Assembly (NCBI GenBank): GCA_033549025.1
Contig: JAWSUS010000020.1
Span: forward strand, 1-63,124
DNA: 63,124 bases
Origin: Desulfuromonadales bacterium
GTDB lineage: Bacteria > Desulfobacterota > Desulfuromonadia > Desulfuromonadales > SZUA-540
Direction: 5' to 3'
Shown: in pieces, positions 52,665 through 57,078 of the stretch
Numbering within the stretch: position 1 is the stretch's first letter
Layout: each line of letters begins with the position of its first letter
Position numbers and translations under genes: made by a program
Notes under the pieces: model-generated
The model's database searches: none
What the model saw: only the letters and a program-made list of their open reading frames with translations
Told to the model about the DNA's origin: nothing

Positions 52665-52826
52665 CTGCGCTTACCTCACGTATGTTCCATTCTAGGGGTG
52701 TAGGTGAATCACTCTCTGATGAGCGAATATCCAAAAAAGTTGTGCCAAATTTCGGCGCATTTTAGTCTACTTTTCAGGAACTTAGCAAGTGAACTGAAAA
52801 GGAGAGGCGAATCGTGGCGAAATTAG

Positions 52827-53030
52827 TCCAAAAAATTTCCAACCTGTAGAGCTAGGTTTATTCAAGAAACCTATTGCTTCCTAGCCGAAATGAGTTGGAT
52901 GAAAACCATAGATGCTGCCGTAAACGGGCTATTTTTTTAAAAAACTATTTACACCCAGAAGGAAGAGGGCGTAGTTGAAGGTTACAGCCAAGAGCACTAT
53001 CGAGAAATTTGTGAAAAAGTGATCGAATAG
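52827..53030 (+). pseudogene. Possible AT-rich gene remnant with one in-frame TAA
   Basis: Frame reads ..MSWMKTIDAAVNGLFF*KTIYTQKEEGVVEGYSQEHYREICEKVIE*; no recognisable family. Confidence 0.2.
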
Positions 53031-53257
53031 TTAACAATTTTTTGCACAAGACCTACTCAGACGTCCCGTCGAGAATTTAATAGTCCATAAAATGGATGGG
53101 CTCCAAATTTGCCATGTAAGCGACTTTTATACACACGTGAAGGGAAAGGCATGCCTAGAAATATGTCTTTCTTGTTGGGTTAAACAGTTAGGAATTGCTG
53201 GTCAAAACATTTTAGCAAACATTTGATTTTTAATCCCAGACTTCTGATCCCGCTCCA

Positions 53258-53285
53258 TGTTTACATAATATATCTTATCCGACGA
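53258..53285 (-). other. Chromosomal dif site (XerC/XerD recombination site)
   Basis: Minus strand TCGTCGGATAA-GATATA-TTATGTAAACA, the 11-6-11 layout of E. coli dif GGTGCGCATAA-TGTATA-TTATGTTAAAT; gene orientation and KOPS flip here. Confidence 0.85.
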
Positions 53286-53628
53286 TAACTATGGCGACCG
53301 ATCAAGGTTACAGTCCATAGGGAGTGAAGGCCGACAGGCCTTTAGCGGGCAGTGGTCGACCAGGGCGAACGCAACGAAGTTTTGCGTTCGTCGCCCTGGA
53401 CGATCACGTCGGCCTGCCCGCGTCTCCCTGTGGGCTGTGTTGGTGCCGGTGGTCGGCGAAGCCGGCCACGGTGCCAATGCAGCACGTGCGAGTCTAGTAA
53501 CACTGCACTTTTGTCTCATTTTTGATACTCATTTTTTGCCTGTTTTTTCACTTAACTGTTCGAAACTAGACGGGAAAAGCCTCTTTTCCCTCCGTCCGAC
53601 AATGTCCGACGCTTTTTAGGGGGATTTT

Positions 53629-53862
53629 ATGCGCAAAAACCGGGTTCGGAAATCGACTCTTGACACAAAAATTACCGTTCGCCTTGACCCTTCCCAACTG
53701 CAAAAGCTGGAACGGTTCGCCGATGGTGAAGGGATCACCGTGTCGTTCATGGTTCGTCACTTGGTCAGGCGCTTCCTTGAGGAAAAAGACCGCTCCATGC
53801 CGATGCAATTTGGCGCTGTTCAAACTTTTTCCTCGCCGATGGATGACTGGGACGACGATTGA
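53629..53862 (+). CDS. CopG/ribbon-helix-helix DNA-binding protein
   Basis: TKITVRLD..QLQKLERFADGEGITVSFMVRHLVRRFL; AGGGGG RBS. Confidence 0.78.
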   Translation: MRKNRVRKSTLDTKITVRLDPSQLQKLERFADGEGITVSFMVRHLVRRFLEEKDRSMPMQFGAVQTFSSPMDDWDDD

Positions 53863-53873
53863 GGGGGCCGTTT

Positions 53874-54383
53874 ATGCAGAAAAATCAGGGGCAAGCGCCC
53901 TACTCCACAACCCGTTTTGAGGCCGATATCTCCAGAGCCTTGAGTGAAGCAAACCGCGTGTTTAACCCGCTTCACAAGGATTGCGAGGTGTCTTACCGGG
54001 TCTTTGACCAGAAGAACGGCTTTGTGGTTCTGCAAGTCGCCCCGCCTTCGGGCATGACTCGGGCCTTCGTCGCTCTGCTCGAATCACTCCACGGGCTGTT
54101 TCGATTCATGGACAACAAGGCCAGAATCACGACTCTTGGCTCTGCTCCGGTGGATCTGTCGGAACTGGAACAGCAAAAGCAGTTCCAAAAAAACTTTCAA
54201 TCGAAGGTTTGCGCCCTCTTCGATGGTTTTACAGGTCAGGGACTAGCACGAAATGAGGCCGTTAAACGCACGAATGCCGCCCTTAAAGCGGAAAAACACC
54301 CATGGGCCAATCATGCAACCGTCTCGGACGTCTTGAGGGCTTCAGGGCGATTTAAGAAGGCCAAAACGGGAAAAAGGGTTTGA
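53874..54383 (+). CDS. Hypothetical protein (169 aa), possible C-terminal helical DNA-binding domain
   Basis: GAGGGGG RBS, follows the RHH gene, basic C-terminus; no HUH or tyrosine-recombinase motifs seen. Confidence 0.65.
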   Translation: MQKNQGQAPYSTTRFEADISRALSEANRVFNPLHKDCEVSYRVFDQKNGFVVLQVAPPSGMTRAFVALLESLHGLFRFMDNKARITTLGSAPVDLSELEQQKQFQKNFQSKVCALFDGFTGQGLARNEAVKRTNAALKAEKHPWANHATVSDVLRASGRFKKAKTGKRV

Positions 54384-54460
54384 CAATTTGACCGACAACA
54401 GCCCAACAATGTCTGACAGTCACAAGTCGACGTTTTGGGATTGGGGAGATTGTAGGTTTG

Positions 54461-54473: not shown

Positions 54474-54501
54474 TTATTAACAAATATATCTTATCCGACG
54501 T
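54474..54501 (-). repeat. Second, dif-like site with a degenerate XerD arm
   Basis: Minus strand ACGTCGGATAA-GATATA-TTTGTTAATAA. Confidence 0.8.
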
Positions 54502-56848: not shown

Positions 56849-56960
56849 GGAAATCCTGTGTAATGGGTATGTAGTGAGATATTTGGGTTGAACCAAAGAT
56901 GATTGAAGAGTTTAAAAAGTACCCCAATAGATTGTATAGCGCAATTCTCTCCAGAGGGTT

Positions 56961-56995
56961 AAAAAAAAAGGGAGTGACTGAGTCACTCCCTCTTT
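56961..56995 (-). terminator. Terminator after tRNA-Pro
   Basis: GGGAGTGAC..GTCACTCCC stem with a 9-T run on the minus strand. Confidence 0.85.
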
Positions 56996-57000
56996 CCTCG

Positions 57001-57078
<78 letters not shown>

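Follow-up and report, generated by a model that had tools for sequence, protein, structure and literature searches.

A protein family of small dif-integrated elements in Geobacter-like bacteria and its candidate role in borrowing host Xer recombinases

The window, that is, the whole stretch of 63,124 nucleotides that was analysed, carries an element of 1,216 bp bounded on the left by the chromosomal dif site and on the right by a second dif-like site in direct repeat (Table 1). These are the only dif-like sites recovered by two scans of the 3.39-Mb assembly (9,464 bases left out). When the two sites are aligned, the spacers are identical, and mismatches are found at 5 of 11 positions in the XerD arm and at 1 of 11 in the XerC arm; arms were assigned by their likeness to the dif consensus. 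The left site was identified as chromosomal dif because the polarity of GGGNAGGG, the KOPS motif of E. coli, flips there: of 19 plus-strand copies 18 are on the left, and of 9 minus-strand copies 8 are on the right. The host encodes a XerD scoring above the TIGR02225 cut-off as well as a XerC-like paralogue, and no recombinase is found among the open reading frames of the element. To the left of dif lies an AT-rich, non-coding stretch (52700-53250) that has no counterpart in two sister genomes and is not bounded by a second dif-like site. A tRNA-like sequence is located at about 56925-57030 on the minus strand, upstream of a DEAD-box helicase gene; a similar tRNA and paaK-like genes are present near dif at locus L002, and at L081:5809 / L157 (G102) dif is situated directly downstream of xerC.

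Table 1. Features of the 1,216-bp element and its junctions, in window coordinates
Feature	Position	Strand	Remarks
Left junction (chromosomal dif)	53258-53285	+	site shared with sister genomes G056 and G120; KOPS polarity switch
Left junction, host XerD arm	53258-53268	+	intact
Left junction, spacer	53269-53274	+	6 bp
Left junction, XerC arm	53275-53285	+	element-derived
Non-coding hairpin region	53310-53481	+	DNA fold z = -7.7; 0/200 shuffles as stable
Two operator-like TGTCNGACA-type repeats	53593-53611	+	directly 5' of RHH gene
RHH (CopG-like) gene, 77 aa	53629-53862	+	homologues precede or fuse to X in Rep-less elements
Gene X, 169 aa	53874-54383	+	ATG start; candidate Xer integration/excision factor
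att-proximal box	54380-54445	+	TTGACA over X stop codon; two operator-like repeats; GGG-N2/3-GGG
Right junction	54474-54501	+	element-derived degenerate XerD arm, identical spacer, host XerC arm

Part of the hairpin region (53380-53437) shares 83% identity over 58 nt (E 2e-10) with non-coding DNA of a satellite encoding a HUH-type Rep (L070), and the region matches locus L089 more weakly. This likeness suggests mobilisation in trans, and the hairpin may act in cis as a rolling-circle origin or as a packaging signal used by a helper. The RHH gene matches PF01402 just under the curated cut-off (E 0.0016) and PHROG repressors at E 3e-5; the TGTCNGACA-type repeats are a candidate site for its autoregulation. 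Gene X, the last gene of the element, is a genuine gene. A GGGGG run resembling a Shine-Dalgarno sequence lies 5' of its start, and an alternative TTG start at 53859 would yield a protein of 174 aa. The first-pass annotation had placed X behind an RHH gene and about 90 bp ahead of a degenerate dif-like site; both statements hold, the interval between the X stop codon and the second site being exactly 90 bp. The att-proximal box has its operator-like repeats at 54389 and 54410, 21 bp apart, and its GGG-N2/3-GGG at 54437-54445. A consensus promoter scan of the element, the box included, called no promoter, so that a promoter reading of the box rests on visual comparison. In RNA run X11, coverage extends over parts of the hairpin and its flanks but not over X, which is uninformative on expression.

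A helical, basic C-terminus and the lack of HUH or tyrosine-recombinase motifs had also been ascribed to X, and closer analysis bore this out. The quoted peptide is present, helices are predicted at residues 95-121, 126-139 and 147-156, and the last 75 residues contain 15 K/R versus 6 D/E. The sole tyrosines, Y10 and Y41, lie outside the positions conserved in at least 60% of 122 aligned family members, so that X lacks the active site of HUH, Rep_trans and tyrosine-recombinase proteins. The structural model (mean pLDDT 90, pTM 0.60) predicts an N-terminal part (about residues 14-92) composed of a helix, a beta-hairpin and a long helix, and a basic three-helix, HTH-like C-terminal domain (about 95-165) in which H142-P-W, R155, G158 and R159 are conserved. 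Structure prediction combined with Foldseek, as the first-pass annotation had proposed, confirmed the helical C-terminus but provided no relative, since X matched neither PDB nor BFVD at E <= 0.001. Using VIA-align, the C-terminal unit reached Z values up to 6.8 against HTH and winged-helix domains, which corresponds to the background of common arrangements, and the N-terminal part a best Z of 4.6; only common HTH or coiled-coil arrangements were retrieved, FtsK-gamma not being among the best 50 matches listed. A sequence search of the PDB yielded a best E of 0.84, and all matches in the ESM Atlas stayed below 0.9. Co-folding of host XerD (31-sequence alignment) with X residues 90-167 (122-sequence alignment) scored 0.00 with the controls not folded, which counts neither way. 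Searches with 101-122 members revealed no consistent family in Pfam, PHROG, NCBIfam or PADLOC (at most 2 members per family), nor any Pfam Rep match. A match to UPF0181/YoaH, from 1 of 101 members (E 3e-4) and one JGI name, is no more than a lead.

Clustering at 50% divides the X family into 126 clusters. A profile of 101 sequences matches 80 of the 401 genomes of the class, related genomes among these not being independent, and named homologues stem from Syntrophotaleaceae, Geobacteraceae and Desulfuromusa, which suggests Desulfuromonadia as the class of the host. In a phylum-wide sample, a single genome outside the class (G418) gave a match; this was weak (E 8e-5), had no dif-like site within 10 kb and was not accepted. 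No match was found in 50,697 phage and 72,556 plasmid records. The search for related loci found no X in genome contigs or viral contigs; they were found by the whole-genome profile search. Longer fused forms of X (407-2000 aa) did not turn up in what is a weak test.

The distance between X and dif or an att site was determined in 78 of the 80 X-positive genomes (without G030 and G187), and was at most 200 bp in 54 of them, at most 1 kb in 66 and at most 2.5 kb in 75. Two of the three remaining genomes have X near contig ends (15 and 547 bp), and in the third a near-match, which the site rule excludes, lies at a distance of 819 bp. Applied to the window's own genome, the same rule returns the two ends of the element and nothing else. 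A reverse test covered 80 of the 321 genomes without X. The pattern of spacer plus XerC arm occurred in 52 of them, and only one (G120) had two copies within 10 kb; visible to this test are only elements with a degenerate XerD arm that are closed on a single contig, and it misses those with a degenerate XerC arm, those split between contigs and some variants of dif. The X family is confined almost wholly to small dif-inserted mobile elements of Geobacter-like bacteria. This near-exclusive location makes it most likely that X helps the elements to borrow the host Xer recombinases. The protein family itself is what is new here. Searches of main texts in the open-access literature found no description of it or of X-bearing dif elements in Desulfuromonadia, and passages on IMEXs (integrative mobile elements exploiting Xer) of other taxa (PMC12715192, PMC9765430, PMC7307601) name no X-like family. 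The family also serves as a marker for dif-integrated inoviruses, satellites and mini-satellites.

Mobility was checked by aligning contigs from 4 of 18 listed public runs to the region. One contig of run X2 joins position 54482 to 53267 (its shorter side has 42 nt, with 18 shared), as a circle or a tandem copy would. A contig of run X1 continues into the right host flank after 8 letters of the intact XerD arm, a weak indication of an empty site. Each of the two signals is a single contig. X is missing from the two sister species of the genus, which carry other inserts at the same dif. With its paired sites, no recombinase of its own, a joined form and a weakly indicated empty site, the element is a mobile unit with the testable features of an IMEX.

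Both junctions and X could be delimited by hand in 46 elements, which were picked for X from genome and metagenome loci. A rolling-circle Rep is encoded in 15 of these, belonging to Rep_trans, REP_ORF2-G2P or Phage_CRI (9 assigned by Pfam, 6 by BLAST clustering), and three of the 15 are filamentous prophages in which a Zot-family gene was recognised, by Pfam in two and by clustering in one. The other 31 elements, including that of the window, are Rep-less and measure 0.7-2.2 kb. In most Rep-less elements an RHH gene precedes X, and in seven elements, as well as in database fusions, an RHH domain is fused to X residues about 95-165 as a single protein. These natural fusions keep about 70 residues of X and so delimit a minimal domain of roughly that size; they identify the C-terminal domain as the constant module of the protein. 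In Rep satellites and inoviruses X is coupled to rep without an upstream RHH gene, overlapping or abutting rep on its up- or downstream side in the Rep satellites and in two inoviruses. X is the gene that all the dif-integrated element types examined have in common, whether inoviruses, Rep satellites or Rep-less mini-elements, its C-terminal domain being invariant. Since it occurs alongside three Rep families or none, X tracks the mode of integration and not the mode of replication.

Several of the elements have individual features. The sole evident gene of three elements of about 0.7-0.8 kb (L035:7167-7872, L095:5517-6246 and L097:5354-6173) is a fusion of RHH with the C-terminal domain of X. 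At L034:7180-16955 (G278), near-identical Rep_trans satellites of 2,437 bp are arranged in tandem at dif with five copies of X, and one further copy lies across dif from the array. Dif-integrated filamentous prophages with Rep, Zot-family genes and X are found at L050:7256-13066, L104:896-7130 and L077:6371-15376, the first two having coat and SSB-like genes and the last an aspartyl-protease-like gene. A XerC-degenerate Rep satellite (L053:7726-8439) carries an FRG-domain cargo gene (PF08867). In the Rep satellites at L034, L036, L041, L051, L052, L071 and L074, X starts about 30-35 bp past att and overlaps the start of rep. This leaves no room for a promoter, and X may need the joined form, circular or tandem, to be expressed.

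In every one of the 46 elements one arm is near-intact and the other is changed at 3-10 of its 11 positions. The degenerate arm is that of XerD in 38 elements and that of XerC in 8, and the spacer is identical at both ends in 43. No two of the 38 degenerate XerD arms are alike, and a locus with two intact sites was not seen. The XerC-degenerate elements (L035, L049, L053, L062, L070, L072, L077 and L089) lie on the XerD side of dif and keep their XerD arm. Some genomes have arrays flanking dif on both sides. On the mostly unresolved tree of the C-terminal domain (32 of 43 branches open), the eight XerC-degenerate carriers do not cluster, requiring 7 changes, with 201 of 500 shuffles as low. 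A strictly XerD-specific activator fails to explain these scattered carriers.

The sequences next to the degenerate arm differ between the element classes. Operator-like repeats 21 bp apart occur there in 27 of the 31 Rep-less versus none of the 15 Rep-coding elements, and the G-box in 25 of 31 versus none of 15. The att-proximal box goes with the RHH domain, and may serve either as a tether site or as a promoter that faces att and is under RHH control. The G-box was considered as a canonical KOPS and rejected, as only 1 of 46 matched.

To our knowledge, FtsK-free activation of XerCD by mobile elements is represented by one structural family, XafT/XafV of gamma- and beta-proteobacteria, whose mechanism has so far the status of a model. 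According to the TLC papers, the degenerate att sites of TLC in Vibrio cholerae recombine only with XafT (PMC6744903, PMC9226527), a two-part protein of HTH and DUF3653 (PMC6744903) that tolerates almost any XerD arm and for which a dimeric bridge was proposed (PMC9226527). Like X, XafT is encoded by a small element gene beside att, consists of two parts and belongs to a dif-concentrated family, and the att of TLC resembles that of the window's element in its intact XerC arm, matching spacer and degenerate XerD arm (PMC6744903; PMC9226527). The swappable N-terminal domain of X parallels the two-part layout of XafT (PMC6744903). In contrast to XafT, X has its conserved HTH-like module at the C-terminus. 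The carriers also differ from those of XafT/TLC in that they include XerC-arm-degenerate elements, whose sites are the mirror image of the TLC att, and Rep-less ones down to about 0.7 kb. Contact with XerD has been shown for XafT and would be assumed for X by analogy. PF12375 (DUF3653) matched none of 101 X members at E 0.05 and none of the 401 class genomes, and no XRE-family HTH/HTH_3 was found among X members. By domain-profile searches, X appears to stand apart from the XafT/XafV family, no link to it being found. XafV (ORF136) of VGJ-type IMEXs is a Xer activator of filamentous phage that aids XerC-initiated reactions; xaf genes adjoin attP and XafV is structurally related to XafT (bioRxiv 10.64898/2026.06.12.731946), whereas X has no sequence link to annotated phage records. 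Satellites of the RS1/TLC type resemble the X elements in being small, dif-integrated, helper-dependent and arranged in tandem arrays. RS1 encodes its own Rep. The same applies to TLC (Cri; PMC6744903), unlike the window's element, which is without Rep.

On balance, the context makes it rather probable that X is a factor by which the element enables host XerCD to carry out recombination between dif and a half-degenerate att without FtsK. The first-pass annotation had named a XafT analogue and a directionality factor among its options, and these appear strongly supported by the tie to dif, the variety of element types and the freely drifting arms. X would be the element's own integration/excision factor, acting through host XerC/XerD. 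It may dimerise via its N-terminal part, or via RHH in the fusions, and its C-terminal domain would assemble or activate the XerCD synapse where one recombinase binds poorly. The element would thereby integrate and excise without FtsK, in line with the dimer-bridge model put forward for XafT (PMC9226527). The Rep-less element of the window would presumably be replicated or packaged in trans, via its hairpin, by a Rep satellite or a filamentous helper phage. However, the support for such a Xer helper is one of association, and any gene essential to the element family, for example a regulator, would give the same pattern. The 46 elements were picked for X, which makes it their common gene partly by construction. 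Moreover, X is not universal, as an unrelated 72-aa family, termed Y, occupies the same slot in 15 of the 401 genomes, and a basic HTH-like C-terminal domain fits DNA binding as well as protein contact.

Accessory proteins that bind beside att are known, such as Xis, or ArgR and PepA at cer. Accessory sequences are likewise a feature of psi, with ArcA and PepA. It is unlikely, though by no means negligible, that X is a protein of this kind, that is, a DNA-binding accessory, directionality or regulatory factor acting at att or on transcription with no direct activation of a recombinase. Besides the conserved residues of the basic HTH-like domain, the RHH fusions and the box, whose spacing to the degenerate arm is constant in Rep-less elements, agree with such a role. 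As in cer and psi, a conserved sequence and an imperfect Xer core are separated by a constant spacing (cer: PMC9226527). In cer and psi host proteins serve the resolution of plasmid dimers, whereas here the box tracks the element-encoded RHH and the element is integrated at dif. It is this association with RHH that speaks against X as the binding protein, the box being absent from 15 of 15 Rep-coding X carriers. Furthermore, the elements already own RHH or HTH_17 regulators, and no X-specific DNA motif conserved across the element classes was evident by eye.

That X is a helper of rolling-circle replication or packaging, comparable to RstB/RstC or hijacking the Rep of a helper, is improbable. 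The proximity of X to rep in Rep satellites and two inoviruses and the resemblance of the window hairpin to a Rep-satellite stretch would fit this role, but X pairs with three Rep families or does without Rep, and its location is nearly exclusive to dif. Non-integrating users of such a helper would be expected among the phage and plasmid records and viral contigs, in which the searches found no X.

An RHH gene followed by a partner gene, with near-overlapping stop and start, is a typical layout of type II toxin-antitoxin pairs. The RHH-then-X operon of the window shares this layout, and X had been considered as a toxin paired with the RHH protein. Such a role of X, in addiction or abortive infection with RHH as the neutralising partner, is very improbable. 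The seven RHH-X fusions argue against a toxin-antitoxin pair, and elsewhere X is coupled to rep in Rep satellites and inoviruses that have no upstream RHH gene. Nor did Pfam, NCBIfam, PHROG or PADLOC assign the 101-122 members consistently to any family, and a restriction to dif would be unexpected for addiction modules. Hardly any likelihood is left for X as a non-canonical replication initiator: although it is the only sizeable gene in the 31 Rep-less elements, genuine Reps of three families stand beside it in 15 of 46 elements, it has no conserved tyrosine or HUH motif, the fusions keep only about 70 of its residues, and its presence in inoviruses, satellites and Rep-less mini-elements alike argues that it is not an initiator. 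The analogy with the dso-copG-rep arrangement of pMV158 breaks down.

Within the preferred reading of X as a Xer helper, a more far-reaching version is put forward tentatively. X could be a third independently evolved Xer activator next to FtsK-gamma and XafT/XafV, an arm-agnostic dimeric bridge that recruits either XerD or XerC where the arm for it is lacking and is tethered by RHH in Rep-less mini-elements, with Y as another activator. The tether would be RHH, fused or as a partner, on operators that lie some 60-85 bp away from the degenerate arm. Hyper-satellites of roughly 0.7-1.2 kb would integrate at dif in this way, the smallest consisting of att, a cis site and the fused gene. With carriers degenerate in either arm, one could test directly if XerD specificity is required of a bridging factor. 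If X is an unrelated Xer helper, hijacking of Xer has evolved convergently, and its traces mark about a fifth of the sampled class genomes. X might also provide a compact tool for site-specific integration in Geobacter and Desulfuromonas relatives.

The Y family is unannotated and shows no similarity to X (hhalign probability 0.2). At 14 of 16 loci Y starts about 30 bp from dif/att, the site lying within about 60 bp, and we consider it a candidate alternative Xer helper. Y is found at L183:1896-2114 (G120) and at L186-L201, for example L187 (G056) and L190 (G290). In G120, Y heads an element of the order Y-Rep(HUH)-RHH with a degenerate XerD arm.
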